Shown here one piece after another: positions 9,288 to 63,884 of a stretch of 64,000 nt of DNA (its first letter is position 1; each line of letters starts with the position of its first letter). The DNA lies in NCBI GenBank assembly GCA_037127915.1, contig JBAXXL010000020.1:1822-65821 (forward strand). The letters run 5' to 3'. The notes below the pieces were generated by a model, which worked only from the letters and a program-made list of their open reading frames with translations, was not told where the DNA came from and made no database searches. Origin of the DNA: a bacterium (GTDB lineage: Bacteria; Bacteroidota; Ignavibacteria; Kapaibacteriales; UBA2268). Both the position numbers and the translations under genes were made by a program.

Positions 9288-9290
9288 AAT

Positions 9291-23509: not shown

Positions 23510-23755
23510 ATGATGAGGAATTTTAAATATATTTTCTCAATAATAGCGGTTTTACAACTACTACAAGTATTTCATAGTGTTAATACCGAACAAAAAAAAT
23601 CCTCAACCAAAACTCCACTCCCAAAAGTAAAATTAAACCCAAATATAGATTCTGACGAATATAAGTATCTTAGTTATATAGAAATTAATAATATTTTATA
23701 TAAATGGCATAGTGCCAAAAATGGTTTTTTAATTTATTTAGGAGTTTTATTATGA
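23510..23755 (+). CDS. Small hypothetical secreted protein (81 aa)
   Basis: N-terminal hydrophobic segment. The stop overlaps the next start (ATGA). No homology recognised. Confidence 0.3.
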   Translation: MMRNFKYIFSIIAVLQLLQVFHSVNTEQKKSSTKTPLPKVKLNPNIDSDEYKYLSYIEINNILYKWHSAKNGFLIYLGVLL

Positions 23756-24549: not shown

Positions 24550-24554
24550 ATGGT

Positions 24555-27500
24555 ATGAGAAGGGAGATTATAATACTTGCGCTTATGGCTATTTTAGGAA
24601 TTTTAACAAGTTTAAAAGCACAGCCAAAAGTTGATAATAATTGTTTGGAAATGATTTATCCAAATGATTACCATAAAGAGTGGAATGAAGAATGGAAAAA
24701 ATGGGATTGGGAAGGTTCAATTAACTTGGATTCTATTAAAATTGATACTTGCAAAGATTCACCTACATTTGGCAAACGCTTTGCCAAAAAATATTTCATA
24801 ATACAGTTTATGAAAAACCAATATCCGTTTGATAAAGGATTAGATACCGGAGAAACAAGAGGATATAACTATATTTCAAATACAAAACCGGAGCTTAAGG
24901 AAAAGTTTAAAAAGCTTGAGGAAAAATTTGGTAAGTTTTATTTTAAAGGATTGGACAAAAAATTAACTGAAAAAATGATATTATTTAATCCAAAATGTAG
25001 AATTTATTTCGATGATTATAAATGTATAGATGATATTGTACAATATATAAAAATGAATTTTTCTTCTGTAAAGAACATTAAATTTCAAAACAGATCTATT
25101 ATTTTGCTAACAGTACCAAATGACAAGGCATTAAGACAAAATTTATCTGGATCATCAATTCACAGCGCGTTAGACTTTTTTCCTAGGCATTGGAAACATT
25201 CGGGATTCCAATCTGAGATATATGAAATGAAGAGTCCCTTAGCATGGGAAATAACAATGGGCAAGCCTCAAATAAAAATAGCTTTCTCAGATGTCTTTAT
25301 ATTTCCAACAATTCACCCTGATGTATATCCAAATCATGAAACTCCCAGCAGTGGTGATGGTATAGAGGAATATGATCAGCTAGGTGATAACCATGGTCTT
25401 TATACTACATCAAATGCTGTAGCATTAGCTAATAATAATTATCCAATGGTTGGATCTGCACCAAAATGCCATGCTTTATCTATATACTATGAGATAAACA
25501 ATGTAAGTGATGCAGATGCTGATGGTTTAATTAACGAACGTAAGTTATTCCCCGATGTAAGAAATTGTAGTTATGGATCAAACAATTTGAGAAGAGTATC
25601 AAGATTACTTCCTAATGATATTGATTCAGGTATAGTTGTTGTAGCATCAGCTGGGAATGATAGAACTTGTTTGAATGGGGCATATCATGCTGCTTCTCAA
25701 ATATTGCCAGATGGAAGTATTCGTTTTATTCCAACAACTGTTTTCCCTGCGGCTACTGTATTTGCGGATCCATTATACCCTACTGATGCAACAAAAGATT
25801 ATAGGCCGATAGCTGTTGGGGCTACCAAAAGCGGAATTTTAAAAAATATGAATTGTGATTTGTGGGAAAACGGAGTTAATGATTCAGCCAATTATTCAAA
25901 TCAAATTCAATTTAGGGATATTTACAATTTTTCGCCAGATGTAAATAAATTTGATATTAATAGCGATATAGTGAAGTATCGAGATTCGATAACACTTGAT
26001 ACCTTATACTTCTATTCAAGGCAATTAGCTAAAGAAAAGGCATTTGTTGATGTGGTAGCTCCTGGAGACGGTATTGTTTGCGCCGACGGAGCAGATGACT
26101 ATACAATGAAATCAGGCACTTCTATGAGCGGACCTTTTGTAGCAGGTATCTGTGGGTTAATGTTATCTGTTAATAAATTTATGGGTGTACCGTTAACTTT
26201 ACCTGTAGATAGTTTATATACCAAACCAATTTGCGGTACGGACGTACAAAGGAAAGCGTATGATATAATAACCTTTACTGCCAAAAAAATACCGGATTTT
26301 GAAAATTTCACAAGAGGTGCCTTGATACAACATGGTACAGAACACTATTTATCCTATCAATTTTATGATGGAAGACCATATCAATATGAATATGTAACTC
26401 AATGGAACGACAAATTAAAACGTAGTTGGGCTCAAAGAGTAGGTTTTGGATTAGTGGATGCATATCGAGCAGTTGCTCATTCAATCCGCCAAAAAGGGCA
26501 GTATGTTTATACTATTGGAACAACAAACTATAATTTACCAATGTATTTTGATAATGGAGTCTTACCAACCCCTGACCCAAGAGGATACTTCAACCCTGAT
26601 AGTATTCGAATTATGCATTGGGGTTCTCAGGTAAATGAAGGTAATCTTGAATTTGAGTTAGCAAATTGGCGTGGACAAACGTCAGGTAACGATGGTATTT
26701 ACAATGTACTTGATTGGGGTGGTGCTTCGCTTCCCAACGAAACGCACAACAACCAAGGCGTTACACGAATCAACTCAGATGATCCGGCTTTTAGGCGTCA
26801 TATTACTGTACAGGATTCTTCGATATTAGCTATAGATGGTATTTTAATTTCGGACCAACCGACGGCTTGCCATTATGTAACTACATCATCAACTGACACA
26901 TCAGAATCGGTTATATTAATGGAAGGTTTAATAAAAAATGTTGAAATTACCGGTAATTTGAAAATTGGTGATTTAATTATAGAATCTTCAATTGATAATG
27001 GTATCGGCGGTGTTCCCGGATGTGTCGGTTTCTCAAGTCAATTGGAAAATAATTATGGTGAAATCTATGGTGAAGTATTTGTGAATAACAAAGCATTGCT
27101 ATATGCTTGGAGCAATTTAAAGACACAACCCGGTAGTTTCATCCATTTAAACGGTGAGAAGGATATGTATCTTTATGGAACTTCCATTATGACAATGAGA
27201 AATAATTCCGGCATTGATGGTTTAGAAGATCGTAAAATCGTTGTTACCGCCCAAGCTGAATTATTTATAGAAGATAGTGCTATAGTTGATATCGATTGCG
27301 AAATCAATGTATTAGCAGGCGGAAAATTAACATTAGGAACTAAGGCAGTAGCAAAAATAAAAAAACTGAACATAGAAGCAGGTGCAACTGTTACTGTTCC
27401 ATCCGGTGCTGTTATGGCTTTGAAAGACCCAGAGCATATAGTAAATGGCAACTTTTATGTAGGTAATGCACCAAGCCTGCACGGTACTGCAAAAGTTATC

Positions 27501-29441
27501 GGTAAATTAGATGATAATTGTTTACCGCTCGGTTCTGAGAAATATGCAAATACAAAATATATAAGTACACAACCTGTTATTTATATGAAAGGAAATCCTT
27601 TAGGAATTCCATATACCACTACTTTAACAATTAACAATTCAGAATTCAAAAACATAAGTATCAATGCCACTGACGTTAGGATTCCTTTCCCTATTTTCAA
27701 ATCGGGTTTCTATACCGAAAGCCGTCACGCAAATCCATATTTCAATTTTGACTTTTTGATTTCGATTAATTATGATAGATGTCAGAATTACAATCCTCAA
27801 ATCAACCGTCTTGTTATGTTTGATAGTTGCCAATTTATTGACAGTTCAACTATTGAAAGATTTCCTTCAGAACCTGACAATTGGAATAAATTCATTTACA
27901 GAACCGGTGGTGTTTTACTAAATGATTGCGAATATGTAAGATTCAACGTCTGTGATTTCAAAAGGCTTGAATATGGTATAACGGCAAACAATTCCATCCA
28001 AATGGATATCTATACCAGTAAATTTGATACTTGCGGAATAGGTGATTATGCCTTTGCAACTGGAACTTTACTTTGCGAGAATAAATACAACATTGTGCAA
28101 TATGGCAGTTTTAGAGATAATGCATTCGATGGCAAAGCATTTAATAATAATTATACACGTTCTCGTTTTTCATATTACGCTATTAATAGTGGTGAGCAAA
28201 GATTCCGAGGAAATACATTTGATCAATATTATAGAGCAGTTTCGAGCGAGAATACCAAAATTATTATGCAAACGATTATTGAAGATAATATGCAAAAAAT
28301 CTATGGGATGAATGATTTTAAGTTTGATCAAATTATTAGTTTAGCAAACTACAATAATAAATTCATCACAAAAGATTGCGAAATTGATACTACTAATCAT
28401 AAAGAAAATGCCGCGGCTGATGTTTTTACAAATGGTAAGATTTTTGATTTAAATGTAGAATGTGGTCATAATAGATTTTCAGAATTCGCGCCATATCATA
28501 TATTAAATTTAGTTCCGGGTAATCCTTTCTTAAATATTAAGATTAATGCTTTTCGCCCCCCTATGGTGCCACCAAGAATTTCAGGAATTATTCCATTTTA
28601 CAATGGGAATCTTGTTCTTCTTAATGAGTCTCAATGGATTCAGGATACATTACATCCTCAATATCCCGGCTTATGTTGCGGTGATAAAACAGATTCAGTT
28701 ATGAATGATATTTGTACAGAAAATGTTTATGCAAATTACGAGTGTATTGATGGTAGTGAAAGCGGTGAAGGCGGTCAGTTATTTTTAACCGAATTATCTT
28801 CATATACTATTGATGAAAATTTAATTAATAGTGCAACACAGAATAAAATAATTGCTTTATCTTCATATTTATCAGAATCAGGCAACAAGAAGGATTTGTT
28901 ACTAAAATTGAAAAATGAACTTAAGCAAACAAACTTAGTTCCTCAGAAGGATAAAGAATTAGCACGATTATGTATTGATTTAAAATTATTGGATTCGATT
29001 AATATAAATGATTATGAAACAGATTATGTAGATAATTTGATATTCAAGCATAATATTTATCGCAAAAACAATAAAAACGATTTACAAAGTATGGGCTATA
29101 TGTCAATGCTGTCATTTTTGAGTAATCGTTATGATAAGGGTTGTAACGATGGCATTAATTATATAAATGAAAGCACAGAAAGCAATTTAAATATTGTTAG
29201 TATAGTACCTAATCCTACAACTGATATTGCAACACTTACATTTACTGTATCTGACGCAAATGCAGTTGATATAATCATTTCAGATATACAAGGTAATACT
29301 GTTTTAAAAGAAACAACATTCCCAACATCTAACAATAATACTTACAAAATCAACTCTAAAAATATGAGTCCAGGAGTTTACTTAGTAACACTTTCCTCAA
29401 ACGGTCATCGAGTAACTGACAAACTAATAGTAGTTAAATAA
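24555..29441 (+). CDS. T9SS-secreted subtilisin-like serine peptidase (S8 family) with a large C-terminal extension, 1628 aa
   Basis: Signal peptide, then the shared N-domain. Subtilase motifs are GTSMSGPFVAG (Ser), VVVASAGND (Asn), and candidate His (GDNHGLYTTSNA) and Asp (IKIAFSDV) motifs. The C-terminus (VPNPTTDIATLTF...SPGVYLVTLSSNGHRVTDKLIVVK) is a T9SS CTD. Confidence 0.7.
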   Translation: MRREIIILALMAILGILTSLKAQPKVDNNCLEMIYPNDYHKEWNEEWKKWDWEGSINLDSIKIDTCKDSPTFGKRFAKKYFIIQFMKNQYPFDKGLDTGETRGYNYISNTKPELKEKFKKLEEKFGKFYFKGLDKKLTEKMILFNPKCRIYFDDYKCIDDIVQYIKMNFSSVKNIKFQNRSIILLTVPNDKALRQNLSGSSIHSALDFFPRHWKHSGFQSEIYEMKSPLAWEITMGKPQIKIAFSDVFIFPTIHPDVYPNHETPSSGDGIEEYDQLGDNHGLYTTSNAVALANNNYPMVGSAPKCHALSIYYEINNVSDADADGLINERKLFPDVRNCSYGSNNLRRVSRLLPNDIDSGIVVVASAGNDRTCLNGAYHAASQILPDGSIRFIPTTVFPAATVFADPLYPTDATKDYRPIAVGATKSGILKNMNCDLWENGVNDSANYSNQIQFRDIYNFSPDVNKFDINSDIVKYRDSITLDTLYFYSRQLAKEKAFVDVVAPGDGIVCADGADDYTMKSGTSMSGPFVAGICGLMLSVNKFMGVPLTLPVDSLYTKPICGTDVQRKAYDIITFTAKKIPDFENFTRGALIQHGTEHYLSYQFYDGRPYQYEYVTQWNDKLKRSWAQRVGFGLVDAYRAVAHSIRQKGQYVYTIGTTNYNLPMYFDNGVLPTPDPRGYFNPDSIRIMHWGSQVNEGNLEFELANWRGQTSGNDGIYNVLDWGGASLPNETHNNQGVTRINSDDPAFRRHITVQDSSILAIDGILISDQPTACHYVTTSSTDTSESVILMEGLIKNVEITGNLKIGDLIIESSIDNGIGGVPGCVGFSSQLENNYGEIYGEVFVNNKALLYAWSNLKTQPGSFIHLNGEKDMYLYGTSIMTMRNNSGIDGLEDRKIVVTAQAELFIEDSAIVDIDCEINVLAGGKLTLGTKAVAKIKKLNIEAGATVTVPSGAVMALKDPEHIVNGNFYVGNAPSLHGTAKVIGKLDDNCLPLGSEKYANTKYISTQPVIYMKGNPLGIPYTTTLTINNSEFKNISINATDVRIPFPIFKSGFYTESRHANPYFNFDFLISINYDRCQNYNPQINRLVMFDSCQFIDSSTIERFPSEPDNWNKFIYRTGGVLLNDCEYVRFNVCDFKRLEYGITANNSIQMDIYTSKFDTCGIGDYAFATGTLLCENKYNIVQYGSFRDNAFDGKAFNNNYTRSRFSYYAINSGEQRFRGNTFDQYYRAVSSENTKIIMQTIIEDNMQKIYGMNDFKFDQIISLANYNNKFITKDCEIDTTNHKENAAADVFTNGKIFDLNVECGHNRFSEFAPYHILNLVPGNPFLNIKINAFRPPMVPPRISGIIPFYNGNLVLLNESQWIQDTLHPQYPGLCCGDKTDSVMNDICTENVYANYECIDGSESGEGGQLFLTELSSYTIDENLINSATQNKIIALSSYLSESGNKKDLLLKLKNELKQTNLVPQKDKELARLCIDLKLLDSININDYETDYVDNLIFKHNIYRKNNKNDLQSMGYMSMLSFLSNRYDKGCNDGINYINESTESNLNIVSIVPNPTTDIATLTFTVSDANAVDIIISDIQGNTVLKETTFPTSNNNTYKINSKNMSPGVYLVTLSSNGHRVTDKLIVVK

Positions 29442-51077: not shown

Positions 51078-51722
51078 TTAATGTTTTTTAGAGTGCCTGT
51101 ATTTCTCTTGGATTTGTTTATGCAATGGATTAACAATTCTTTCCTCGAATAGTTTAAGTTGCTTTTTGTTTTCTGCAGAACTTAATGAAAAGTTAATTTC
51201 TTCGTCATTTTCTCGGGATTTATCCTTTGGATTAATGATAAGGTAAAAACCAATGGCTGATTGATTCTTTCTTGGAGTTTCAACTACTACAGTATATAAT
51301 ACCCTTTGTTTATCAGAGTAGTAGAAAAACATTGGAGCCATATACACGTTTTTATCATATTCTGAATTACCAAAAATAGGATCATCTATCAGTGGATTCA
51401 ATTCCGGATGAAGTTCTTTGAATTTCACAATTTCAGATAATAATTCTAATTTACTTACTTCAAACTTATAATATTCGATACTACTATATGAAATATGAGT
51501 AAAATTTGTTACAAATTTTACAAAAAAATATAAAAATATTATGATTACTAAAACAAGAATTATAATTTTATATTTTTTCTTAATCATTGTTTTTGATTTT
51601 CTTGGCAAATAGATTTTACCATTTCGATATAGTTGGAATTGCTCATTCCGATTAATGTCGTCTCCGTTCAATGAAGGCGAACCTTCTTGACTATCAAAAT
51701 TCTTGATTTTCGATTTTTTCAT
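51078..51722 (-). CDS. Hypothetical membrane-anchored protein (214 aa)
   Basis: Lys-rich N-terminus followed by a single TM helix (IIILVLVIIIFLYFFV). No recognised domain. Confidence 0.45.
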   Translation of the reverse strand: MKKSKIKNFDSQEGSPSLNGDDINRNEQFQLYRNGKIYLPRKSKTMIKKKYKIIILVLVIIIFLYFFVKFVTNFTHISYSSIEYYKFEVSKLELLSEIVKFKELHPELNPLIDDPIFGNSEYDKNVYMAPMFFYYSDKQRVLYTVVVETPRKNQSAIGFYLIINPKDKSRENDEEINFSLSSAENKKQLKLFEERIVNPLHKQIQEKYRHSKKH

Positions 51723-52364: not shown

Positions 52365-54044
52365 TTATTTAGCAATCAACTTCACGTTATCTGTGTTCCA
52401 CCCTTTTTTAACAACAATGGGTTCCTTCAGATAATAACTTATTTCGGAAGGTTCGTAAGGCCAAGGTCTGCCGTTATCTATTTTTTGATTGCCATTGGTG
52501 TCGAAGAATACGATTGCTGTATAGGATTCCGGGATGACATTATCTATTTTCCAGTTACCTAATGAATCCGGCTTAATAGTGTATTCTTTTGTTTTAGTAC
52601 TGAGTTTGATAATCCAATTGCCGAATTTGTAATTATTAGTTTGAAGTGTACCGCTGACAGTTGAATAATCGGCTGGGTTAATAGTTTTGATAATAAATGT
52701 TTGCGCACTATCTTTCCCATAAGAGCCGTCAACTGACAATATCTTTTTCGGATTAAATTTGATAAAATACTCTGATGCTTGCTTTAAATCAATTGGAATG
52801 ATTTTAATAATGTTCGGGTATTCAGCTGTAGCTAATTTGTAGCTCTGCATAACTGAATCTTTCGCTGAATAAATAGATAACGAATTGCTAATTGAATCGA
52901 CTATAATTGGGTAATTGAATTCAAATGTTAATGTATCGTTTGGATTAATTACGTTGGCGGGTTCCGCTTGAGCGAATTTCTCAAGTTTTGGAACTAAAGC
53001 CATTTTTGGGGATATAGCTGTAAAATTTACTTTCCTTGTAGAATCGTTAATGAAATTTCCAGCTGAATCAATTAATACATTGCTGAAAATCGCCTGCCAC
53101 ATTTCATTAGTATCGAGAGCGGATTTAGTATAAATATAAAATTCATCAGGATTTTTCGGCGAATTAAAAAGGACAAAGTCTTTGTATTGCTTTGTTTTTT
53201 GCAAGTTTTCTATTGTAACAAGGTCTTGTTTGAACAGTCCTTTGGCAAACTTTTCCGATAATTGGATTTTATAAAGATTATTGCTCTGGGGTTCGAATGA
53301 ACTTATGCTTGGGCGAATAACATCAAATACACCTCCCATTCTCAAAACTGCGGTTGGTGCTTTTGCATTTTCTACTTTGTAATCTCTGCTCGCAGTTGAA
53401 AAACCGTCAGTATTAATATCATATATTCCATCTTTGAATTTGTCATCAATTGCGAATAAGCGATATTCTCCGTCTTTCAACGCATTAACAGTAAAATCTC
53501 CGCTTGAGCCGAGAGGGATTATGTAATCGGGTTTTGTATGAGTAATATTCAATGTATCGGCTTTTATGCCGGTAAGTTTATAAGCAAAAACATAAGAAGT
53601 AGTTGTCGGCATATAGACATTGCCGGTGATTTTGCCGGTATCAATTTTTGTTCCGCGCGAAAAAATAATAGCATAAGCCGCTTTGGGCTTATTGCCGACC
53701 ATATCGGTATATTCAGTTCCCAATGTTAATGTGTATGTGATAGCCGGATTAAGTTCGTCTTTCAAATACAAAAATAATTTTTTCCTTTTCCATTTTGAGT
53801 CGAATTCAATTTTTGGAGTAATATAGATATTTTGAATAACAGTCTGTTTATTTGTATATTCACTAAAATTAATTTGGAGTTTATTATCTTTAAATTCGGT
53901 AGTCTGGTTGACCGGATAAGATGATACGACGGTAGGAGGCTGAGTATCTTTTGGTCCGCCGGATGGATTGTCGATAACAGCACATGATGTAATTGCGCAA
54001 ATGATCAGGAAATAAACAAATTTCTTCATTTTTCTACGAATCAA
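52365..54044 (-). CDS. Lipoprotein with Ig-like/β-sandwich repeats (559 aa), function unknown
   Basis: Signal peptide with lipobox (LIICAITSC). Ser/Thr-rich β-strand-like repeats. No catalytic motif. Confidence 0.55.
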   Translation of the reverse strand: MIRRKMKKFVYFLIICAITSCAVIDNPSGGPKDTQPPTVVSSYPVNQTTEFKDNKLQINFSEYTNKQTVIQNIYITPKIEFDSKWKRKKLFLYLKDELNPAITYTLTLGTEYTDMVGNKPKAAYAIIFSRGTKIDTGKITGNVYMPTTTSYVFAYKLTGIKADTLNITHTKPDYIIPLGSSGDFTVNALKDGEYRLFAIDDKFKDGIYDINTDGFSTASRDYKVENAKAPTAVLRMGGVFDVIRPSISSFEPQSNNLYKIQLSEKFAKGLFKQDLVTIENLQKTKQYKDFVLFNSPKNPDEFYIYTKSALDTNEMWQAIFSNVLIDSAGNFINDSTRKVNFTAISPKMALVPKLEKFAQAEPANVINPNDTLTFEFNYPIIVDSISNSLSIYSAKDSVMQSYKLATAEYPNIIKIIPIDLKQASEYFIKFNPKKILSVDGSYGKDSAQTFIIKTINPADYSTVSGTLQTNNYKFGNWIIKLSTKTKEYTIKPDSLGNWKIDNVIPESYTAIVFFDTNGNQKIDNGRPWPYEPSEISYYLKEPIVVKKGWNTDNVKLIAK

Positions 54045-54046
54045 TA

Positions 54047-54075
54047 TAATAAAAAGGCCGCTTACGTAAGCGGCC
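54047..54075 (-). terminator. Terminator downstream of tRNA-fMet
   Basis: Perfect 20-bp palindrome ggccgcttacgtaagcggcc followed by tttttatt on the minus strand. Confidence 0.7.
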
Positions 54076-54087
54076 GGTTATTTTTTG

Positions 54088-54160
<73 letters not shown>

Positions 54161-54261
54161 AAATTATAATTCAAAATTACGAAATTTTTAGCAAATAAAC
54201 AAATTTTCGGAATAAATTTCTTATTTTTGCTTGAACAATATTTGGCAATAGAGGTGAATAT

Positions 54262-56466
54262 ATGAAGATTTCGTTACGAAAAGGTATTCTTTCCTTATCA
54301 ATCATATCGACAGTACTAACTGCCGCTATAATTATACTACTCACAATGTTTTTTCAAAGCAGAATAATTAATTTGGCTGAAAGTGAAGTAGATAAATTGA
54401 CAAAGAAAAGCATCAAGCAATTAAGTTGTGATTTATATGATATGTGCGCTTCTATTGATGAAGCTTCATCTTTAAAACTCAATTCAGCATTAAGATTATA
54501 TCAGGATAAAGTCAGTAAATTAGGAGCGTATTCTATCAATCCTAATTTAACAAATACTGTTAATGCGAGGGACCATTTCGGCGAAGAAATGGGGACAAAA
54601 GCAATTCCATCTCTGACGCTGAATGGAGTTCCATTTACTCCGCTAACCGCGATGAGCCAAAAAACAGGTTTAGTGGATGATCTGCAATCAATCTTTCCGA
54701 CTACTAAATTTTCTGTTTATGAAAGATTGAATTCAGATGGAGATATGATTTGCGTTAGCTCAAATTTAGAGCATAAAAAAGGTGAGCGTGCTGTAGGAAC
54801 TATGATTACAGCAATTAAAAAAAGCGGCAAAGCAAGTAAAATAATTATAAATATCTTAGCAAAAAAGGAATATCATAATGTCTCGAGTTTCTTCAATGAA
54901 ATGTACATTTCATTATATGTTCCAATAAAGAACTATAATGGCGATGTAATCGGTATGCTTCATATCGGCGATCCACTAAAGTCATATACAAGACTTCAGA
55001 ATATGATTGATGATATTACGGTCGGTGAAACCGGATATGCTATTTTGATAAGCGGTGACCCATTTACACCCGGCTTGGGTGTTGTATCGAAAGGTGGAAA
55101 AGCAAATGGCAAAAACCTCTGGAGTGTTCGTAATTCGCAGGGTGTTTATCCCGTTCGAAATGGAATAAAAAATTCGAGAGCATTAGCCCAAACTTCTGAG
55201 GATAGTGTTTATATAGAGAAATATAATTGGGTTGACCCATCAGGTAAGGAATATCAAAAGGCGGCTTATAATATATACTATACACCTTGGGAAGTGATGA
55301 GTTCAGTGACATTCTATGAATATGAAATGAAGCAGGCAAAAGAATTGATAATAGGGCAATTCAATAATCTAACATATTGGTCGTTAGGAGTTTCACTGGT
55401 TTTAGTTCTTGTTTTAGTATTTCTTGCTATTATTTTTACAAGGACTTTAGTAAAGCCAATTAACCATATAAAAGATTTAGCTATTATGATGGCGGATGGA
55501 AACATAGCCGAAGTCAATCTCCAACTCAAGGAAATTGAGCACGATGAATCGAAAATTGACTACCGGAACGAAATTCAGACTTTGGAATTTTCGTTCAGCA
55601 AAATGATAAACAATCTTAGTAAATTAATATATCAAGTTCATAAAAGCGGGATTGAGGTTAGCAGTTCTACTGCTCAAATCTCAGCCTCGGCTCGTGAATT
55701 GGAAGCGGCTGTAGCAGAAAATGCGGCGTCGACAAAAGAAGTTTCAGCAACGAGTAAGGTGATTGCCGATTCGAGTGAGAAATTGGCTCAACGGGCGGAA
55801 GGAATTTCGGATGAGATTTCCGGTACTGTTGAATTAGCGCGCGGAGGGCAGGACAATTTGCAATTGATGAACAATGCTATGACTTCGATCGTTAGAGCGG
55901 CAGGTTCAATCTCAACAAATCTAAATAATATAAATAAAAAAGCAAATGATATATCGGGTATAATTAAAACTATAGATAAAATTTCGGATAATACTACTTT
56001 GCTATCACTTAATGCGGCGATTCAAGCTGAAAAAGCCGGTGACCAAGGTAAAGGATTTTCGGTAATTGCCCGTAAGATAAATGAATTGGCAGACCAAACC
56101 AATATAGCAACCAAGGATATCGAATTTATGGTTAAGCAGATGCAAAGTTCTGTTGCCGCAGGTGTGATGGAAATGGATAAATTTGGTAAAGAAGTGCAGA
56201 AAAATAGCGACGATATTTTCAATTTAGGGAATCACTTAGCTGAAATAATCAATAGAATTGGCGGGATATTACCGATAATTGTCGATCTGAAAGAGAATAT
56301 GCACTATCAAGCTAATGATGCTAACCAGATAAGCGAAGCTATTGAACAGCTCGATACTGCATCAAGGCAGACGAAGGAAGCACTACAGGAATTCAATAAA
56401 GTTGCTGAAAAGTTAAATCAATCAGCACAAGGTTTGCATAAAGAAGTTTCGGTATTTAAAGTTTAG
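54262..56466 (+). CDS. Methyl-accepting chemotaxis protein with a periplasmic Cache-like sensor, HAMP, and MA domain (WspA-like position)
   Basis: Two TM segments flank a periplasmic domain of about 330 aa. Conserved MCP signalling hairpin (TTLLSLNAAIQAEKAGDQGKGFSVIA). Confidence 0.85.
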   Translation: MKISLRKGILSLSIISTVLTAAIIILLTMFFQSRIINLAESEVDKLTKKSIKQLSCDLYDMCASIDEASSLKLNSALRLYQDKVSKLGAYSINPNLTNTVNARDHFGEEMGTKAIPSLTLNGVPFTPLTAMSQKTGLVDDLQSIFPTTKFSVYERLNSDGDMICVSSNLEHKKGERAVGTMITAIKKSGKASKIIINILAKKEYHNVSSFFNEMYISLYVPIKNYNGDVIGMLHIGDPLKSYTRLQNMIDDITVGETGYAILISGDPFTPGLGVVSKGGKANGKNLWSVRNSQGVYPVRNGIKNSRALAQTSEDSVYIEKYNWVDPSGKEYQKAAYNIYYTPWEVMSSVTFYEYEMKQAKELIIGQFNNLTYWSLGVSLVLVLVLVFLAIIFTRTLVKPINHIKDLAIMMADGNIAEVNLQLKEIEHDESKIDYRNEIQTLEFSFSKMINNLSKLIYQVHKSGIEVSSSTAQISASARELEAAVAENAASTKEVSATSKVIADSSEKLAQRAEGISDEISGTVELARGGQDNLQLMNNAMTSIVRAAGSISTNLNNINKKANDISGIIKTIDKISDNTTLLSLNAAIQAEKAGDQGKGFSVIARKINELADQTNIATKDIEFMVKQMQSSVAAGVMEMDKFGKEVQKNSDDIFNLGNHLAEIINRIGGILPIIVDLKENMHYQANDANQISEAIEQLDTASRQTKEALQEFNKVAEKLNQSAQGLHKEVSVFKV

Positions 56467-56483
56467 TCAATTTCTATAAAAAT

Positions 56484-56966
56484 TTGGTTTTGCTAATGTT
56501 AGTAGTATTATTCGATATAGATGGTCAGAAATTCGGTATTGACTCCCAATATATAAAGGAGGTTATTCCGTATGTACAATCTAATCCGGTGCTTTATGCA
56601 CCGCCTTATATTATTGGTGAAATAATATATCAAGAAGAAGCCATTCCATTAATAGATTTGAATATGCTTTTTTCCGGCAACCCTGCTGATGAATACTTTA
56701 GCTCTAGAATAGCAATTCTAAGATTGTTACATGAGCCGCAAGGTTTGAAAATAGCCCTATTAGCAAATAAAATGACTAAGACTGTAAATTGTGAGGATAA
56801 TGAATTTGTTCATAATAATCTTGGTTCATATGAGGATTCTCTGTTCATAAATGTATTTAGAAAAGATGGGCTAAGAATTCAGATGACGGAAGTTGAAAAA
56901 TTACTGCATAAAAAAGACTATATTGAATTACTGAATAAAATTTATGAAAATAAACCGGTTGCCTAG
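56484..56966 (+). CDS. CheW-like coupling protein (the start may be ATG 56496 rather than TTG 56484)
   Basis: LFDIDGQKFGID...IGEIIYQEEAIPLIDL is a CheW domain. Confidence 0.8.
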   Translation: MVLLMLVVLFDIDGQKFGIDSQYIKEVIPYVQSNPVLYAPPYIIGEIIYQEEAIPLIDLNMLFSGNPADEYFSSRIAILRLLHEPQGLKIALLANKMTKTVNCEDNEFVHNNLGSYEDSLFINVFRKDGLRIQMTEVEKLLHKKDYIELLNKIYENKPVA

Positions 56967-58181
56967 ATGCCATACAATTATGAAGAAATCAAAGAATTAA
57001 CCGCAAAGAACTTTGGAATTTCCACGAGTTCTTTGGGGGAATCTTTTGTAAAGGATTCTTTGGATAAATATTTAAGTAAGATTGATGAGCAAGACTCAAC
57101 CGGAAAAATCACTACTTCGGAAAAGTTTTTGGACGATTTCTTCGAATATATCAAAGTTCCTGAAACTTGGTTTTTCAGACAGCCGGAATCATTCGAATGT
57201 TTAAAAACTACTGTGCTGAAGAAGCTTCAGACCAAAGACGATAAAATCCGCATTCTCTCGATTCCTTGCTCTACCGGCGAAGAGCCGTATTCTATAGCGA
57301 TGACTTTGGAATCAGCAGGAATAAACAAAGAGCGCTATACATTGGATGCCGCGGAGTTATCGGCAGTATCAATACTCAAAGCAAAAGAAGCTGTTTATGG
57401 TAAAAATTCATTCCGCCAAACACTTTCGAAGTCTGACCACGAGTTTTTCCAAAAAGAAGGACAATTGAATCGTGTTCGCGAGGACATTCGTGCGATTCCG
57501 AATTTTATTATCGGAAATTTACTACAGGCCAATTTTTTGAAAGGTGTAGAGAAGTACGATATAATTTTCTGCCGCAATTTGTTGATTTATTTCACCGATT
57601 CAGCGCGTAAAGCCGCAATTAATAAAATCAAAGAATTACTTGTGGACGATGGATTAGTTTTTACCGGATATTCAGAATTTGTATTCTTTTTACAAAATGG
57701 CTTTCACGATTTGGAGCAGAAATTGAGTTTTGCTTGTCATTTGGAAGATATAAAGAGGAAACCTGAAATTATCCCTCCTAAGAAAAAACCTAACTTTCAG
57801 AAGCCAATCTTAAGACCAACTGAACAAAGTAAAATCAAAAAAACTGAAGTTTTACCAAAGGAAGACGGCGCAGATAAATCTTGGGAATTGGAGTTTTTGG
57901 CAAATGCCGGTGATTTGGAGGAAGCTAAGATATTGGCACAAAAAGTAATAGATGGTGATTCCGCAAATTCAAGAGAGTTGACAATTTGCGGAGCGGTTTT
58001 TTCAGCTTGCAATATGAATCCTGAAGCAATTACTTGCTTAGAACGCGCAATATACCTAAACCCCAACGAAGATGATGCTTTAATTCACCTTGCTTTGATA
58101 TATGAGGATGCAGGTAAAAAGGAGCAAGCGGAATTACTAAAAAAGAGGATTCGGAAAATAAATGCAAAGGAGGCTCTGTAA
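56967..58181 (+). CDS. CheR-type MCP methyltransferase with a C-terminal TPR region (WspC-like)
   Basis: CheR N-terminal and SAM-binding regions (WFFRQPESF, RILSIPCSTGEEPYSIAM, IIFCRNLLIYF). TPR-like C-terminus. Confidence 0.85.
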   Translation: MPYNYEEIKELTAKNFGISTSSLGESFVKDSLDKYLSKIDEQDSTGKITTSEKFLDDFFEYIKVPETWFFRQPESFECLKTTVLKKLQTKDDKIRILSIPCSTGEEPYSIAMTLESAGINKERYTLDAAELSAVSILKAKEAVYGKNSFRQTLSKSDHEFFQKEGQLNRVREDIRAIPNFIIGNLLQANFLKGVEKYDIIFCRNLLIYFTDSARKAAINKIKELLVDDGLVFTGYSEFVFFLQNGFHDLEQKLSFACHLEDIKRKPEIIPPKKKPNFQKPILRPTEQSKIKKTEVLPKEDGADKSWELEFLANAGDLEEAKILAQKVIDGDSANSRELTICGAVFSACNMNPEAITCLERAIYLNPNEDDALIHLALIYEDAGKKEQAELLKKRIRKINAKEAL

Positions 58182-58917
58182 GCAAATGGAAGAAACATAT
58201 TTAAATAGCCACAAAGAACTTTTGGATAGAGAATTTACACCCGAATTACAGGAAATTTGGAGTGCGGAAGTTGCCGAAAAAGTTACCAATATTGAATTGA
58301 AAACCCTATCCTTTGTTGTGTTTAAACTTGGAGGTGAATGGTTCGGTTTAGATGTGGATTGCTTTAGAGATGTAGTTTCACCTCGCTTGGTCCATAGCAT
58401 TCCAGGACGAAAAACCGAATTTTTAGAAGGGGTGGTAAATATAGAGGGTGAATTGATGATGAAGGTGAACCCAAATAGTATATTGGGTTTGACGCAGAAT
58501 CCCGAATCCGCAAAGATTGGAAAATTTATGTTATTAGAGCACGAAGGTGATAGCTTTGTTATTAAAGCCGATGAGTTTGCCGGAGTGGAAAAATTAAGTA
58601 GTAATCAGATTGTAAAAGCACCGGCATTGAATAATATTGAGTTTCACCAAGCGATTTCAGAACTAACCAAAACGCATATTGAATACACCGATATTCACGA
58701 GCAATTTGCTGTAAATAAAAGTGCTGAGAGTGAAGAAACAAATGCTGAAGTAGAAAAAAACACAGTGATATTGGGAATATATAAAAGACAGCAAAATCTT
58801 CAAAATAAGCTGACAATTGAAGAAACGGATGCTGATCTTACAGTTAGTGAAATGACAATCGGTATAATTTGGGAACGAAGATTTTTTGAATTGTTAAAAT
58901 CAAATTTTAAATGGTAA
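58162..58917 (+). CDS. Second CheW-like protein (WspD-like position)
   Basis: LSFVVFKLGGEWFGLDVDCFRDVV...EGVVNIEGELMMKVN is a CheW domain with a C-terminal extension. Confidence 0.75.
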   Translation: MQRRLCKQMEETYLNSHKELLDREFTPELQEIWSAEVAEKVTNIELKTLSFVVFKLGGEWFGLDVDCFRDVVSPRLVHSIPGRKTEFLEGVVNIEGELMMKVNPNSILGLTQNPESAKIGKFMLLEHEGDSFVIKADEFAGVEKLSSNQIVKAPALNNIEFHQAISELTKTHIEYTDIHEQFAVNKSAESEETNAEVEKNTVILGIYKRQQNLQNKLTIEETDADLTVSEMTIGIIWERRFFELLKSNFKW

Positions 58918-61670
58918 TGAACGAAATAATTGATAATACTTTGCTTGAACTTTTCCGAACGGAAATCGAAATCCATACATTGGCTTTGGAGGACGGTTTA
59001 TTGGATTTGGAAAAGTGCCAAACAGCGGAACAGATAAATCCACTTATGAGAGCGGCTCATTCTATAAAAGGAGCGGCGCGCATTGTTGGTTTGGATTTCG
59101 GAGTAGCTTTGGCTCACGCTATGGAGGATTTATTAAGTGCGGCGCAGGAAGGCAAAACCATATTGAATTCTCAGGACTTGGATTGGCTTTTAGAAGGAAA
59201 TGATATTTTCAAAATCCTTAAAACCGGCGAGCTGAGCAAAATCCCCAATCAATTAGACTCTGAAAAAGAACATATTGATAAACTGGTAAAATCACTGAAA
59301 CAATCTGTGACCAAGGAAAAAGAAGATAAAGCTACTTGTGAAGTACCTGAAATTATTGAAACAGTAGAGCAAAAAATCAAGAACAGCGCGGATGCGAAAG
59401 CGAAGCTGGTGAAACCCGACCCTATATTTGCACAAATTTTCCAAAGCCAACTTCTTAGCGGTTCGGAAGCAATAAAGAAAATCCTGAACGGTAAAGAAAC
59501 ATTGGAATCAGCTGAACTTGATGCGGTAGCAAAGAATATAGACCAGATTCAAGGTGGAGCGAAAATTATAGGATTTCATAACCTATCGGATATCTGCATT
59601 CAATCGAAGTTGATGCTTAATCATCACGATAAAATTGATTCATCGGAAACGAAAAGCGCTATTGAAGCTGTAATAGAAATAAACGATTTGTTTAATTATA
59701 TGGCAAGAAGCGCGGGTGATGATTTCTTTCAGATTTTTTATGACAACTACGAAAACATTCAAGAATTCTCCGCCAAAATTGAGAATTTGATAAAGCAATT
59801 TGAAATGCCGAAAAATTCAACTCCTGTCAAAGATGAAGAACCGCCTGAAATAACAATTGAGCCGACTATAAGCTCGGCAGAAGCTAAGAAAGCCGCGTAT
59901 AAAGCCGAGAAACTGGTAAAAAGCAAGGATGAGGTATTCGTTAAGGTATCAACAACGCACTTAAACAAAGTGATGGCTTATGCCAGCGAATCGCACGTCC
60001 AGGTCAACAATACAGCCGTTTTGGAAAAAGATATTCTTTCGGCAAAAAGCAAACTGATGAGCCTAATAACTGAGTTGGAATCTATGGATATATCCAACGA
60101 CACGGTAGTAGAATCCGCAGAGAAATATGCGGCATCGCTCCAATTGGCTTATAGTTGTCTGCGAGAAGTTACTTATTGCTACGAAAGATTTGAGCATTTA
60201 GCCGGGCGTTTAGATAGTGTTTCGGATAGACTTTACGATGCTACATTGCTGACCAGAATGGAACCGTTCTCGGAAGGAACTTTTGATTTCAAACGTAATG
60301 TTCGAGATTTGGCAAAAGAATTGGGTAAAGAAGTCAATTTGGTGATTGAAGGTGCGGGTGTGAATGTGGACCGCGATATATTAGAGAAACTGCAACCTCC
60401 GCTTATACATCTTCTGCGTAATGCCATTGACCACGGAATCGAAATGCCGGACGAAAGAGAGCGGATTGGAAAACCAAGAGTAGGTACAGTTGAAATCAAA
60501 GCTCGACATAGCGAAGGTCTTTTAATTATTACAGTCAGCGAAGACGGCCACGGTATAGATACAGAAAATCTACGAAAAAAAATCGTAGAAAAAGGTTTTG
60601 TAAGCGAAGACTTGAGTCAGTTTTTAGATAAAAATGAACTATACGAATTTCTGTTTTTACCGCGTTTTTCGACAAAAGAGCATGTATCGGAGATTTCGGG
60701 CCGTGGTGTTGGATTGGATGTAGTGTTCAACATGGTTCACGAAGTCGGCGGTGTGATAAGTATTGAATCTGTATTAGGAGTGGGAACCACATTCAAATTA
60801 AGATTACCTTTAACACTTTCGGTTATTAAAACTATTTTGATTTTAGTGAATAACGAAATTTATGCCCTTCCTATAAATAACATAGAGCGGATATATAAAA
60901 TCAAACGCCAGGATTTAAAACTTATCGAAAACAATTACTACTTCAATGTAAGCGACGAAACCGGTGCTGAAGAAAACATCGGCATTGTTTCCGGTAAAAG
61001 AATTTTATATAACGGTGATATTGGTATATTAGATGAAGTTATTAACGCGATAGTTTTGAATGATAGACAAAGCCGATACGGGCTGATTGCCGATAAAATA
61101 ATCGGGCAAAGCGAGTTAGTGGTTATGCCGCTCGACGGCAGATTAGGCAGTAAAATCCCGTTAATTAGTGCGGGTTCAATCTTAGATGATGGATCGGCGG
61201 TTTTGATTTTAGATACCGAGGATATGGTTCGTGCTATGGATGCGGAATTCAACAAGAAGAACCACACACATGATATGGATATTCCAAAAGATCACATCAA
61301 AAAGAAAATTTTAGTTGTTGATGATTCGATTACCGTTAGGGAATTGGAAAGGAAACTGCTTGAGAATAAAGGCTATGACGTAACGATAGGAATAGATGGT
61401 ATAGACGGTTGGAATTTAGCAAATAAAAATCAATTTGATCTCGTGGTTAGCGATATAGATATGCCGCGTATGAACGGTATAGATTTGGTTAAAAGATTGA
61501 AAACACATGCGCAATACCGCGATACTCCGATTATGATAGTATCGTATAAAGATAGAGAAGAAGATAAAATAGCAGGTAAAAACGCCGGAGCCAATTACTA
61601 TTTGACAAAAAGCAGTTTCGCAGATGATTCATTTATTTTAGCTGTCGAAGATTTGATAGGTGAGGCATAA
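58911..61670 (+). CDS. Hybrid CheA histidine kinase with two Hpt domains, HATPase, a CheW-like domain, and a C-terminal CheY-like receiver (WspE/FrzE-like)
   Basis: Hpt motif (AAHSIKGAARIVG). HATPase (HLLRNAIDHGIE...GRGVGLDVV...GTTF). Receiver domain (KILVVDDSITVRE...DLVVSDIDMPRMNG...K). Confidence 0.85.
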   Translation: MVMNEIIDNTLLELFRTEIEIHTLALEDGLLDLEKCQTAEQINPLMRAAHSIKGAARIVGLDFGVALAHAMEDLLSAAQEGKTILNSQDLDWLLEGNDIFKILKTGELSKIPNQLDSEKEHIDKLVKSLKQSVTKEKEDKATCEVPEIIETVEQKIKNSADAKAKLVKPDPIFAQIFQSQLLSGSEAIKKILNGKETLESAELDAVAKNIDQIQGGAKIIGFHNLSDICIQSKLMLNHHDKIDSSETKSAIEAVIEINDLFNYMARSAGDDFFQIFYDNYENIQEFSAKIENLIKQFEMPKNSTPVKDEEPPEITIEPTISSAEAKKAAYKAEKLVKSKDEVFVKVSTTHLNKVMAYASESHVQVNNTAVLEKDILSAKSKLMSLITELESMDISNDTVVESAEKYAASLQLAYSCLREVTYCYERFEHLAGRLDSVSDRLYDATLLTRMEPFSEGTFDFKRNVRDLAKELGKEVNLVIEGAGVNVDRDILEKLQPPLIHLLRNAIDHGIEMPDERERIGKPRVGTVEIKARHSEGLLIITVSEDGHGIDTENLRKKIVEKGFVSEDLSQFLDKNELYEFLFLPRFSTKEHVSEISGRGVGLDVVFNMVHEVGGVISIESVLGVGTTFKLRLPLTLSVIKTILILVNNEIYALPINNIERIYKIKRQDLKLIENNYYFNVSDETGAEENIGIVSGKRILYNGDIGILDEVINAIVLNDRQSRYGLIADKIIGQSELVVMPLDGRLGSKIPLISAGSILDDGSAVLILDTEDMVRAMDAEFNKKNHTHDMDIPKDHIKKKILVVDDSITVRELERKLLENKGYDVTIGIDGIDGWNLANKNQFDLVVSDIDMPRMNGIDLVKRLKTHAQYRDTPIMIVSYKDREEDKIAGKNAGANYYLTKSSFADDSFILAVEDLIGEA

Positions 61671-62668
61671 TGAAAAGCATTGCTATTATAGCACCCAATA
61701 TTGGGGATTATAAATTCATACACGAAATTTCAGGTAGCACAAGCGATGTAAAATTCTTTTGGGCGGGATACGAGTACAATGAAATAATTAACGGCATTGT
61801 AAACACGAAGCCCGATTTAATACTTTTAAGTATGAATTTTACTCTCTTAGATATTCCAAAGTTGATTAAAGATATTCTCTCGGTATACAAGTGCCCGCTA
61901 ATAGTATATATAGATGAAAGTAAAAATTCAGATGGTTTAATATTTGACGCCTTGAATGCCGGTGCCACAGACTATATTAAGCTTAAATTAGATTTGCCGT
62001 CAGCAGAGCTTAATAAGGAGTTGAATAAGAAATTCAGCAAAATTATCAATTCAAACAAAATATCTGCTAAAATTCATGATATACCTACATATAAAGAGGG
62101 TGATGAAAAGCAAAACCTTGTTATTATTGGTTCATCGACCGGTGGCCCTGCCGCTCTAATGGAAATTATTAAAAAACTTCCTAAAATGAAGGAAAGCTCC
62201 ATTGTGATTATTCAGCATATAGAACCGGACTATATCCAAGCATTGATTGAATGGCTGAGCTATCATTCAATAAATTTGGTTGAGGTTGCACAGAATAATC
62301 ACAAACTTGAAAAAGGGAAAATTTATCTTGCCAATGGGGGTGAGCATTTGTTAGTGGATAATCAGGGTTACTTCCGGTATACAAAAGATCCTGAGGAATA
62401 CCCTTATAAACCGTCCATAAACAGATTTTTCGAGTGCATTGCCGAATCACCGCTGTATTATGGAACTGCAGTAATACTAACCGGAATGGGACGTGACGGT
62501 TCTATTGGATTGCTGAAATTAAAAGAGAACAAATGGAGAACCATTGCTCAAGATGAGCAAAGTTCCGTTGTATATGGAATGCCGAAAGCCGCCAAAGAAA
62601 ACGGCGCGGCAGAAAACATATTAGGATTAAATGAGATAGTTGATAAAATCTCAAAAATTGTATATTAA
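61670..62668 (+). CDS. CheB-type methylesterase with a degenerate N-terminal receiver-like domain (WspF-like position)
   Basis: Catalytic region IIGSSTGGPAAL...IIQHI...ILTGMGRDG...AQDEQSSVVYGMPKAA. The N-terminal domain has Ser where the phospho-acceptor Asp is expected (PDLILLSMNF). Confidence 0.8.
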   Translation: MKSIAIIAPNIGDYKFIHEISGSTSDVKFFWAGYEYNEIINGIVNTKPDLILLSMNFTLLDIPKLIKDILSVYKCPLIVYIDESKNSDGLIFDALNAGATDYIKLKLDLPSAELNKELNKKFSKIINSNKISAKIHDIPTYKEGDEKQNLVIIGSSTGGPAALMEIIKKLPKMKESSIVIIQHIEPDYIQALIEWLSYHSINLVEVAQNNHKLEKGKIYLANGGEHLLVDNQGYFRYTKDPEEYPYKPSINRFFECIAESPLYYGTAVILTGMGRDGSIGLLKLKENKWRTIAQDEQSSVVYGMPKAAKENGAAENILGLNEIVDKISKIVY

Positions 62669-62684
62669 TAAAGATAGGTTTGAT

Positions 62685-63884
62685 ATGTCACTAATTACGA
62701 AACAATTTCAAGAAAAAATTTCGAATTTAAGAATAAAAGTACTATTAGTAGATGACCAAGCAATAGTTGGTGCGACAGTAAAAAAAATGTTAGAGGGCGA
62801 AACCGATATAGAGTTTAATTTTTGCCAAGACCCTACGCAGGCAATACAAACAGCTATTACGGTAGAACCAACAGTTATACTGCAAGATTTGGTAATGCCC
62901 GATATAGAAGGTCTTTCGTTGGTAAGGTTTTATCGTGGACATCCTGCCCTGAAAAATGTTCCGGTGATAGTACTATCGTCAAAAGAAGAAGCAATTACTA
63001 AGGCTGAATCTTTTGAGGTTGGAGCGAATGATTATTTGGTGAAACTACCGGATAAAATTGAGCTTATTGCACGTATCCGTTACCATTCAGCAGGTTATAT
63101 TTCTCTTTTGCAAAGGAATGCGGCATATGATGCTTTGGAGCAAAGTCAGAAAGAATTGCAAAGCGAGTTGAACAAAGCGGCTGATTATGTTATTTCACAA
63201 TTACCAAAAGAGCTCAAAGAAGGTCCCATCGAAACACATTGGCGGTATATTCCGTCTGCTCAATTAGGCGGTGACGCTTTTGGGTACCACTTTTTGGATA
63301 ACGATCACTTTGCTATGTATCTACTAGACGTTTGCGGACACGGTGTCGGCTCGGCATTACTTTCGGTTTCTGCTATGAATGTATTGCGATCGAGTAATTT
63401 AGCGGATTGCGATTTCAAAGACCCTGTTTCTGTAGCTCATGCTATGAATAAAAATTTCCAGATGCAGGATCATAATGATTTGTATTTCACTTTGATATAT
63501 GGTGTTTTTAATAATAAGACCCGAGATTTGGATTATATTTGCTGTGGCCACCCACCGGGATATCTAATTCATAAAGATGGAAAAGGTGAAGTCGTTCGCA
63601 ACGAAAACTTTTTCATTGGCGGTTTGCCGTTTTTTCCATTCGAAAAGAGCAAGATGAATTTACCCGTCGGCGCTTCGCTTTATATTTATTCAGATGGCGT
63701 TTATGAGATAGCTAACAAGGATGATAACTCGATATGGGCTATGGAAGATATGTTCGCGATTATTCAGGGAAACATCGGTAAAGAAAAATCAGAAATTGAT
63801 ATATTGAACGAATATGTACACGATTACAGTGGCTTGGAAATATTGGAAGATGATTTTTCAATGTTACGATTGACATTTAACTAA
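62685..63884 (+). CDS. Response regulator: a receiver domain fused to a PP2C-family (SpoIIE/RsbU-like) Ser/Thr phosphatase. It is the output of the chemosensory cluster.
   Basis: REC (KVLLVDDQAIV...ILQDLVMPDIEGL...VLSSKEE). PP2C/SpoIIE domain (GGDAFGYHFLDNDHFAMYLLDVCGHGVGSALLS...YSDGVYE). Start at MSLITKQF is chosen; the ORF track's TTG at 62640 overlaps cheB. Confidence 0.8.
   Translation: MSLITKQFQEKISNLRIKVLLVDDQAIVGATVKKMLEGETDIEFNFCQDPTQAIQTAITVEPTVILQDLVMPDIEGLSLVRFYRGHPALKNVPVIVLSSKEEAITKAESFEVGANDYLVKLPDKIELIARIRYHSAGYISLLQRNAAYDALEQSQKELQSELNKAADYVISQLPKELKEGPIETHWRYIPSAQLGGDAFGYHFLDNDHFAMYLLDVCGHGVGSALLSVSAMNVLRSSNLADCDFKDPVSVAHAMNKNFQMQDHNDLYFTLIYGVFNNKTRDLDYICCGHPPGYLIHKDGKGEVVRNENFFIGGLPFFPFEKSKMNLPVGASLYIYSDGVYEIANKDDNSIWAMEDMFAIIQGNIGKEKSEIDILNEYVHDYSGLEILEDDFSMLRLTFN

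Follow-up and report, generated by a model that had tools for sequence, protein, structure and literature searches.

A Wsp-family chemosensory operon on a Kapaibacterium chromosome, with a PP2C-type phosphatase domain in the place of the GGDEF cyclase

Introduction

The Wsp system, which is the alternative cellular function (ACF) system of Pseudomonas aeruginosa, is a textbook chemotaxis-like pathway that controls cyclic di-GMP (c-di-GMP) and biofilm formation. What might such a pathway control when its last gene encodes another enzyme? This question is raised by a 64,000-nucleotide stretch of DNA from a member of the Kapaibacteriales (GenBank assembly GCA_037127915.1, contig JBAXXL010000020.1, positions 1,822 to 65,821 of the forward strand; "the window" below means this whole stretch). 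At 54262-63884, the list of open reading frames (ORFs) and Pfam reveal seven plus-strand genes for a methyl-accepting chemotaxis protein (MCP), a CheW, a CheR with tetratricopeptide repeats (CheR-TPR), a second CheW, a hybrid CheA ending in a receiver (CheA-REC), a CheB, and a response regulator in which a receiver (REC) is joined to a PP2C-type Ser/Thr phosphatase domain (REC-PP2C). An earlier note, written from the sequence alone, had recognized in this order that of wspA to wspR, had described the receptor as having a periplasmic sensor of about 330 aa, and had proposed an ACF-type system directed at a partner-switching target.

We consider it likely that the cluster is an ACF-type operon of the Wsp family, located on a Kapaibacterium chromosome, in which the receiver and stalk of WspR were kept and a PP2C domain replaces GGDEF, and that it would signal by switching this phosphatase toward a target for which a STAS protein is the likeliest candidate. 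This reading builds on the gene content, the homology to Wsp, the intact receiver and PP2C active site, the fold of the regulator, and the conservation of the whole cassette.

A Seven-Gene Operon in Wsp Order

The seven genes are the following:

54262-56466, plus strand: MCP in the WspA position, 734 aa; Pfam Cache_3-Cache_2, HAMP and MCPsignal
56496-56966, plus strand: CheW in the WspB position, 156 aa in the public gene call (alternative start TTG 56484); Pfam CheW, E 2e-15
56967-58181, plus strand: CheR with a short C-terminal TPR region in the WspC position; Pfam CheR, E 2e-37
58186-58917, plus strand: second CheW-like protein in the WspD position, 243 aa in the public gene call; Pfam CheW, E 6e-14
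58911-61670, plus strand: hybrid CheA in the WspE position, 919 aa; Pfam Hpt, HATPase_c, CheW and Response_reg
61670-62668, plus strand: CheB methylesterase in the WspF position, 332 aa; Pfam CheB_methylest only, E 3e-49
62685-63884, plus strand: regulator in the WspR position, 399 aa; Pfam Response_reg and SpoIIE (E 3e-33)

The same seven-gene order is that of the wsp operon annotated on the megaplasmid of Ralstonia solanacearum, so that ORFs, Pfam and the Ralstonia operon agree with the order given in the earlier note. Following the operon from its first gene, neighboring genes are separated by gaps of 29, 0 and 4 nt, then overlap by 7 and 1 nt, and are finally separated by a gap of 16 nt. 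Because the genes abut or overlap, a single operon fits. The boundaries of the cluster stand as previously given, with one correction at the regulator: its recorded start is ATG 62685, which yields the 399-aa product found in public assemblies, and not TTG 62640, for which an exact-sequence look-up in public assemblies returned no match.

The Output Regulator Joins a WspR-Type Receiver and Stalk to a PP2C Domain

That the terminal regulator combines a REC with a PP2C/SpoIIE domain is borne out by Pfam, by invariant Asp residues, and by AlphaFold2 and Foldseek. The Pfam SpoIIE match spans 190 of the 192 profile positions, and no GGDEF match was obtained. In the AlphaFold2 model (mean pLDDT 90.4), the receiver (residues 17-123) is followed by one continuous stalk helix of 49 residues (124-172) and by the PP2C domain (182-398). 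The best sequence matches in the PDB were the WspR structures 3bre (P. aeruginosa PA3702, E 3e-51) and 3i5a (P. syringae WspR, E 2e-50), with a counted identity of 58% over query residues 17-158; RssB (3eq2) was matched in the same search. Clear similarity to WspR ends with the stalk (query ~17-160; 3i5a aligns over 18-160 only), fading where GGDEF starts. Identity of REC and stalk to Ralstonia WspR is 61%.

In a family alignment of 52-54 sequences (45-91% identity, plus a Nostoc protein at 36%), the invariant residues are D23, D24, D68 and K120 in the receiver, and G195-G196-D197, D215, H219-G220, S336-D337-G338 and D389-D390 in the PP2C domain. Being full length, with metal-binding Asp residues that do not vary in the family, the domain is presumably an active phosphatase of the SpoIIE/RsbU type, unlike the truncated E. 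coli RssB.

Foldseek placed P. aeruginosa RssB (3f7a, 3eq2), also of REC-linker-PP2C build, at the top of its matches to the model, and further returned E. coli RssB, WspR, and the PP2C domains of Rv1364c, SiaA, SpoIIE and RsbX. P. aeruginosa RssB, the best structural match, has the same domain order, a full-length PP2C and a crossing helical linker, but its identity to the regulator is only 23-25%, and the receiver here is of WspR type. The genetic settings also differ, since rssB lies in an operon with an rsbV-like STAS gene, rssC, and takes part in sigma-S control (PMC12143880; Baral et al., 2025), whereas the present gene belongs to a Che cluster with no STAS gene nearby.

A Wsp-Type Sensory Core

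Judged by its protein sequences, the cluster is a true Wsp homolog beyond the shared gene order. The Wsp system of Pseudomonas, for which we used the Ralstonia operon in comparison, likewise has a 40H MCP, two CheW proteins, a CheR-TPR and a hybrid CheA-REC with no detected P2 domain in the same order, and a CheB-like methylesterase and a WspR-type REC with stalk are common to both. The output there is GGDEF and here PP2C, so c-di-GMP is not made directly.

In the MCP, two transmembrane segments (TM1 ~9-31, TM2 ~369-392) enclose a periplasmic sensor (~32-368) of ~337 aa, close to the length proposed earlier, within which Pfam detects Cache_3-Cache_2 (residues 39-360, E 5e-45). A comparison of this sensor with solved structures gave no useful relative (best E 0.003 over 79 residues), and for this reason no ligand can be proposed. 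The signaling domain belongs to the 40H class: it has exactly two extra heptads per arm compared with Tsr (36H) and the same helical-domain end as Tsr, with the hairpin tip at F599 and no C-terminal pentapeptide. The arm that follows the tip Phe is 135 aa long, and measures 135-138 residues in every Wsp-order relative in which the tip motif was found. Identity to Ralstonia WspA is 37% and is confined to the cytoplasmic part; the Ralstonia receptor has a four-helix-bundle sensor (4HB_MCP_1) instead, and a GGDEF-type cluster among our comparison loci (L020; these loci carry L-numbers, and 91 of them were covered by local BLAST mapping) has CHASE3. Since Cache_3-Cache_2, 4HB_MCP_1 and CHASE3 all occur, the type of sensor varies within the Wsp family.

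The two CheW proteins are 25% (WspB) and 24% (WspD) identical to their Ralstonia counterparts; the second has N- and C-terminal extensions and an alternative start at 58162. CheR is 30% identical to Ralstonia WspC, and in its residues ~342-401 several TPR families match, each below the Pfam cut-off.

CheA has the Hpt motif HSIKG, the dimerization and HATPase core, and a receiver at its C-terminus whose Asp pocket is intact; a P2 domain was not detected. Its linker (residues ~100-430) is ~150 aa longer than that of WspE. Residues ~165-260 may correspond to a degenerate second Hpt with Gln in the place of the phospho-His, 'NIDQIQGGAKIIG' aligning weakly against 'AAHSIKGAARIVG' (pairwise BLAST E 0.002, Pfam Hpt E 0.0027). 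Identity is 40% to Ralstonia WspE vs. 34% to the E. coli CheA core. Neighbor-joining (NJ) trees of the CheA core unite all Wsp-order clusters in a single clade, which is split from two non-Wsp CheAs of the comparison loci with a bootstrap of 100/100; an NJ tree adding E. coli CheA, with few outgroups and no bootstrap, recovers the same clade. By these identities and trees, the CheA is a WspE-type hybrid, away from E. coli CheA.

The esterase motifs of CheB are intact. Its N-terminal receiver, judged by alignment with 16 Wsp-type CheBs, is degenerate: Ser replaces the phospho-acceptor Asp and the acidic pocket is gone, whereas WspF has a phosphorylatable receiver. This position holds Ser in the window and in a sister genome (L005), Lys in L006, Asn in L086, and Asp in the other members. 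Because the phospho-acceptor is replaced, phospho-control of adaptation would have been lost in this lineage, and several PP2C-type cassettes are predicted to have lost it independently.

Loss of wspF is a classic route to constitutive Wsp signaling. In the R. solanacearum SL3022 megaplasmid (CP023017.1; L092, 8823-9872), wspF reads through two frames with no coding sequence listed, and it appears to be frameshifted.

The features by which ACF systems have been described (PMC3447774) are found in the window: a multidomain response regulator as output, a CheR-TPR, and, among the window ORFs scanned against Pfam, no CheC, CheD, CheX, CheZ or CheV and no single-domain CheY. The ACF-type assignment made in the earlier note is strengthened by the WspR-type REC and stalk, the WspE-type CheA and the 40H MCP. 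An ACF system is likewise present in P. aeruginosa (PMC7184735).

Conservation of the Cassette and Exchange of Its Output Domain

The same seven-gene order was found at every close ortholog of the regulator that we examined (at least 46% identity), comprising 14 genome loci and seven loci obtained by protein look-up. The earlier note had named REC-PP2C orthologs unrelated to such a cluster as evidence that would speak against its proposal; every close ortholog lies in the same cassette. These loci are labeled as at least six phyla, the labels being Kapaibacterium, Ignavibacteriales, Chlorobiota, Bacteroidetes, Latescibacterota, Gemmataceae/Planctomycetia and Deltaproteobacteria, with Hyphomicrobiales as a further label by bin name only; the protein names of orthologs add Syntrophales and Syntrophorhabdaceae. 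A Cache_3-Cache_2 sensor is present in every cassette with a complete, Pfam-annotated first MCP.

Within the cassette, no gene is better conserved than that of the regulator. Across cassettes, identity is 58-76% for its REC and stalk and 38-56% for its PP2C domain, compared with 35-42% for CheA, 31-42% for the MCP, ~32-35% for CheR and CheB, and 25-30% for the CheW proteins.

Sister clusters with this gene order have the same receiver-stalk (50-57% identity) joined to GGDEF or to HisKA-HATPase. The GGDEF fusion was found in Massilia, Ralstonia and one metagenome-assembled genome (MAG) of Pseudomonadota, and the HisKA-HATPase fusion in Verrucomicrobia, with or without extra REC and Hpt domains. 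The same Wsp sensory core and receiver-stalk that drives a kinase or a cyclase in the sisters would here drive a Ser/Thr phosphatase, which makes the family a clear case in nature of output domains being exchanged on a conserved Wsp receiver-stalk. It has been proposed that REC, PAS and GAF inputs are exchangeable among PPM, histidine kinase and GGDEF outputs (PMC12143880), and the regulator family fits this exchangeable toolkit.

The loci with a kinase output are L021, L022, L025, L027 and L053, all in Verrucomicrobia MAGs, and in some of them two further receivers and an Hpt come after the HisKA-HATPase part. L025 also has a separate response regulator of 205 aa following on.

Two Verrucomicrobia-like loci, L035 and L079, have a non-Wsp Che cluster (CheA, MCP, CheR, CheB, CheY-like) followed by a REC-PP2C gene and a STAS gene. 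From these clusters, PP2C outputs would have been recruited to chemosensory clusters more than once.

Predicted Mechanism and Possible Substrates

By homology, the steps from signal to phosphatase would be as follows. A ligand or an envelope cue would act on the Cache_3-Cache_2 sensor of the 40H MCP, which through the two CheW proteins would set the autophosphorylation rate of the hybrid CheA, and CheA would phosphorylate D68 of the regulator. This phosphorylation would repack the stalk helices within a dimer or oligomer and turn the PP2C domain on, as in the linker-controlled WspR, RssB and RsbU; RsbU is activated through a crossing coiled-coil linker, and P. aeruginosa RssB has the same geometry (PMC12143880). 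The active PP2C would then dephosphorylate a phospho-Ser/Thr protein encoded in trans, likeliest a STAS partner-switching protein, and so change the activity of a sigma factor or effector. CheR-TPR and CheB would adapt the MCP by methylation, and CheA would not be able to steer CheB via the missing phospho-acceptor Asp.

This explanation is weakest at the substrate and its identity, and several results weigh against the reading as a whole. A search for partners with an iterated STAS profile and RsbW queries covered the window and all loci. Neither the 64-kb window nor the 10 kb downstream yielded a STAS, RsbW-like or sigma-factor gene, and none adjoins 18 of the ~21 orthologous cassettes. The ACF class is supported by proxies and a small NJ tree, not by class hidden Markov models. 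The PP2C-type cassettes are united in a single clade of the CheA tree, suggestive of a single origin of the swap, with a bootstrap of only 49/100. Finally, the literature searched contained only catalogs, and no experimental work on a Che/Wsp-type cluster whose output is a REC-PP2C. Of the interpretation given in the earlier note, the Wsp order, the ACF/Wsp type and the PP2C output stand. The partner-switching target is a prediction, for which neither STAS nor RsbW-like genes turned up in the window, in the 10 kb that follow it or at the side of most cassettes.

A partner-switching target is nonetheless plausible by analogy with more distant relatives. The closest annotated non-Wsp relative of the regulator is a REC-SpoIIE protein encoded on a plasmid of Nostoc flagelliforme (36% identity over 95% of the length), and its gene has an anti-sigma regulatory factor gene and a STAS gene as flanking neighbors. 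In at least 12 more distant REC-PP2C loci, a STAS gene adjoins the regulator gene or lies within ~1 kb of it, mostly downstream.

Further evidence concerns a family of ~500-aa proteins that begin with an RsbW-like HATPase_c_2 domain and have a conserved C-terminal part of ~330 aa without a Pfam match. In L016, genes for an RsbW, a STAS protein and a 493-aa member of this RsbW-fusion family (16987-18468) are found 5 kb from the cassette, and in L088 (11238-12767) and L095 (~7102-8718) a homologous 509-aa protein is encoded directly 3' of the regulator. When 80 metagenome loci were traced, the family adjoined STAS genes in at least 17 loci, and at L158-L167 it is part of modules composed of STAS, 500-aa, PP2C and RsbW genes. 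Because of this STAS adjacency and module membership, the family looks like an undescribed component of partner switching. As a general partner of the cassette, it was rejected: it is linked in one lineage only (L088, L095, L099), and loosely in L016.

A wider proposal, about which we are slightly more doubtful than confident, is that the Wsp receiver-stalk is a universal "plug" for three kinds of dimeric output enzyme, GGDEF, histidine kinase and PP2C, in operons that are otherwise homologous. The PP2C version, found with a Cache_3-Cache_2 sensor in each case that could be checked, would be a widespread and uncharacterized route that converts a periplasmic chemical signal into Ser/Thr (partner-switching) control of gene expression through a trans-encoded substrate, and the substrates may include the ~500-aa RsbW-fusion family. 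It is distributed over Kapabacteria, Ignavibacteria, Bacteroidota, Latescibacterota, Planctomycetota and deltaproteobacterial lineages.

Alternative Explanations

The PP2C domain could instead belong to a circuit like SiaABCD, in which a PP2C and a kinase acting on a STAS-like protein lead to a diguanylate cyclase, so that c-di-GMP and surface behavior would still be controlled, although indirectly. Through SiaABC(D), a diguanylate cyclase is coupled to a PP2C phosphatase, a kinase and a small target protein (PMC9239204, PMC7647112, PMC7278518). The core machinery of the cluster is homologous to Wsp, and the PP2C domain of SiaA is among the structural matches of the regulator (6k4e, TM-score 0.82 normalized to target), but identity to SiaA is only ~15%, and no GGDEF, SiaB-like or SiaC-like gene adjoins any cassette examined; we regard such a circuit as unlikely. 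It is also conceivable, though we judge it very unlikely, that the phosphatase acts within its own array, on the MCP, the extended second CheW or the CheA linker, as a branch for feedback or adaptation. No substrate gene is conserved beside the cassette, the phospho-acceptor Asp of CheB that normally closes the feedback loop is lost in several members including that of the window, and the regulator is by far the best conserved gene, which fits co-evolution with conserved partners. Against this, the cassette encodes no Ser/Thr kinase, and the PP2C domains of the best-matching solved proteins, RssB, Rv1364c, SpoIIE and RsbX, act on STAS-type partners. The STAS genes adjoining distant REC-PP2C genes, and the partner-switching genes beside the cassette in three lineages, argue in the same direction.

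That the PP2C domain is a non-catalytic adaptor in the manner of E. coli RssB, handing a sigma factor or some other protein over to a protease, is highly improbable. P. aeruginosa RssB, which gave the best fold match, combines phosphatase activity with a role as adaptor, and the best NCBIfam match of the regulator is Pseudomonas-type RssB (NF045505). However, the score for that family is 113 bits against a cut-off of 700, and there is no adjoining rssC-like STAS gene. E. coli RssB is truncated and inactive (PMC12143880, which also describes the P. aeruginosa protein), whereas the domain here is full length with invariant metal-binding Asp residues. We give hardly any credence to an ordinary flagellar or pilus chemotaxis cluster next to which a REC-PP2C gene lies by chance, and linkage and homology already contradict this reading. 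The core Che genes do form a generic set, but the regulator is linked to the cluster in every orthologous locus and in at least six phyla, the genes show translational packing, the CheA falls with WspE and not with E. coli CheA, and the regulator receiver is 58-61% identical to WspR; the absence of a single-domain CheY and of CheZ, CheC, CheX, CheD and CheV among the window ORFs scanned points the same way.

Relation to Known Systems

RsbY is a receiver-fused PP2C that drives the RsbV/RsbW/sigma-B partner switch, and RsbM is CheR-like. In Bacillus cereus, RsbK, RsbY and RsbM form a His-Asp phosphorelay in which RsbM methylates and tunes the kinase RsbK (PMC4574943). The Rsb system, likened to the Wsp-type cassette by description only, thus also has a receiver-PP2C as the output of a methylation-tuned phosphorelay. 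Its sensor, however, is a hybrid histidine kinase, it has no CheB, and its partner-switch genes are adjacent, whereas an MCP-CheW-CheA array is present here and no such genes adjoin it. Another comparison is offered by the "stage 1" clusters of the F7 class in gamma- and beta-proteobacteria, to which a serine phosphatase and anti-sigma-factor antagonists are linked (PMC7184735). These belong to a different class, their phosphatase is listed as a separate gene at the end of the cluster and not described as fused to a receiver, and their STAS genes are encoded in cis.

The idea has more precedent than the earlier note implied. CheR-TPR genes were found mostly in clusters with multidomain regulators, and "REC - Ser/Thr Phosphatase" regulators of Methylococcus capsulatus and Desulfovibrio salexigens are given in Table S2 of the same study (PMC3447774; Munoz-Martinez et al., 2012), which states that the same architectures are in Table S1 of Wuichet and Zhulin (2010) for the ACF class. 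The cataloged CheR-TPR/ACF clusters likewise have a REC fused to a family-2C Ser/Thr phosphatase, and there they are table rows only, not accompanied by analysis or experiment. The output type was therefore already cataloged in 2010-2012, and the cassette of the window adds an uncharacterized member to it.

The finding is of modest practical value: the architecture was already cataloged, and current models are uncontradicted. The cassette has been kept in many uncultured phyla in which signaling is essentially unstudied, and its substrate, if identified, would tie chemoreceptor-array signaling and adaptation to partner switching.

Genomic Setting and Other Observations

Upstream of the operon, the MCP gene faces a divergent gene across a presumed promoter region:

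52365-54044, minus strand: Big_5 gene, divergent from the MCP gene
54045-54261: divergent intergenic region between the Big_5 gene and the MCP gene, presumed promoter region of the operon

A scan with the sigma-70 consensus gave 29 promoter-like sites vs. 34 expected from shuffled sequence, so that no promoter was identified, and a consensus scan found no convincing terminator 3' of 63884. A perfect, GC-rich palindrome with an 8-bp stem, GGCCGCTTACGTAAGCGGCC, is located upstream of the operon at 54056-54075, with T-runs on both sides; it resembles a bidirectional terminator although it lies between two gene starts.

Proteins identical to those of the window are also encoded on contig CAZYBI010000015.1 of the MAG GCA_964645665.1. 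The nearest species-level genome is that of a Candidatus Kapaibacterium sp., whose regulator is 91% identical. The GC content of the cluster (0.36-0.38) is the same as that of the rest of the window, which consists of chromosomal core genes, and the cluster is near ribosomal protein operons (29.7-48.5 kb: S12, S7, EF-G and EF-Tu through SecY, RpoA and L17). The regulator gene is followed on its 3' side by genes for endonuclease III, an AI-2E transporter, a YggS-like protein and a PPDK_N protein. Pfam scans of the ORFs detected no flagellar or pilus genes in the 64-kb window.

The window further encodes a PBP2-type transpeptidase, type IX secretion cargo (Por_Secre_tail) and Fib_succ_major proteins. 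Large secreted proteins form a dense set at 1128-13677 and 23752-29441, which includes three Fib_succ_major/TIG proteins (1355, 583 and 292 aa) and several type IX secretion cargo proteins with Por_Secre_tail, one of them a 1628-aa subtilase. Five ORFs at 14243-17513 and 51078-51722 (374, 208, 208, 217 and 214 aa) gave no significant match in Pfam. Genes for subunit II of cytochrome bd oxidase (20324-21349) and for a protein of the deoxyhypusine-synthase family (21939-22970) enclose a small GTPase gene (21349-21939), and a Sua5/YciO/YrdC-family gene is found at 19671-20312.

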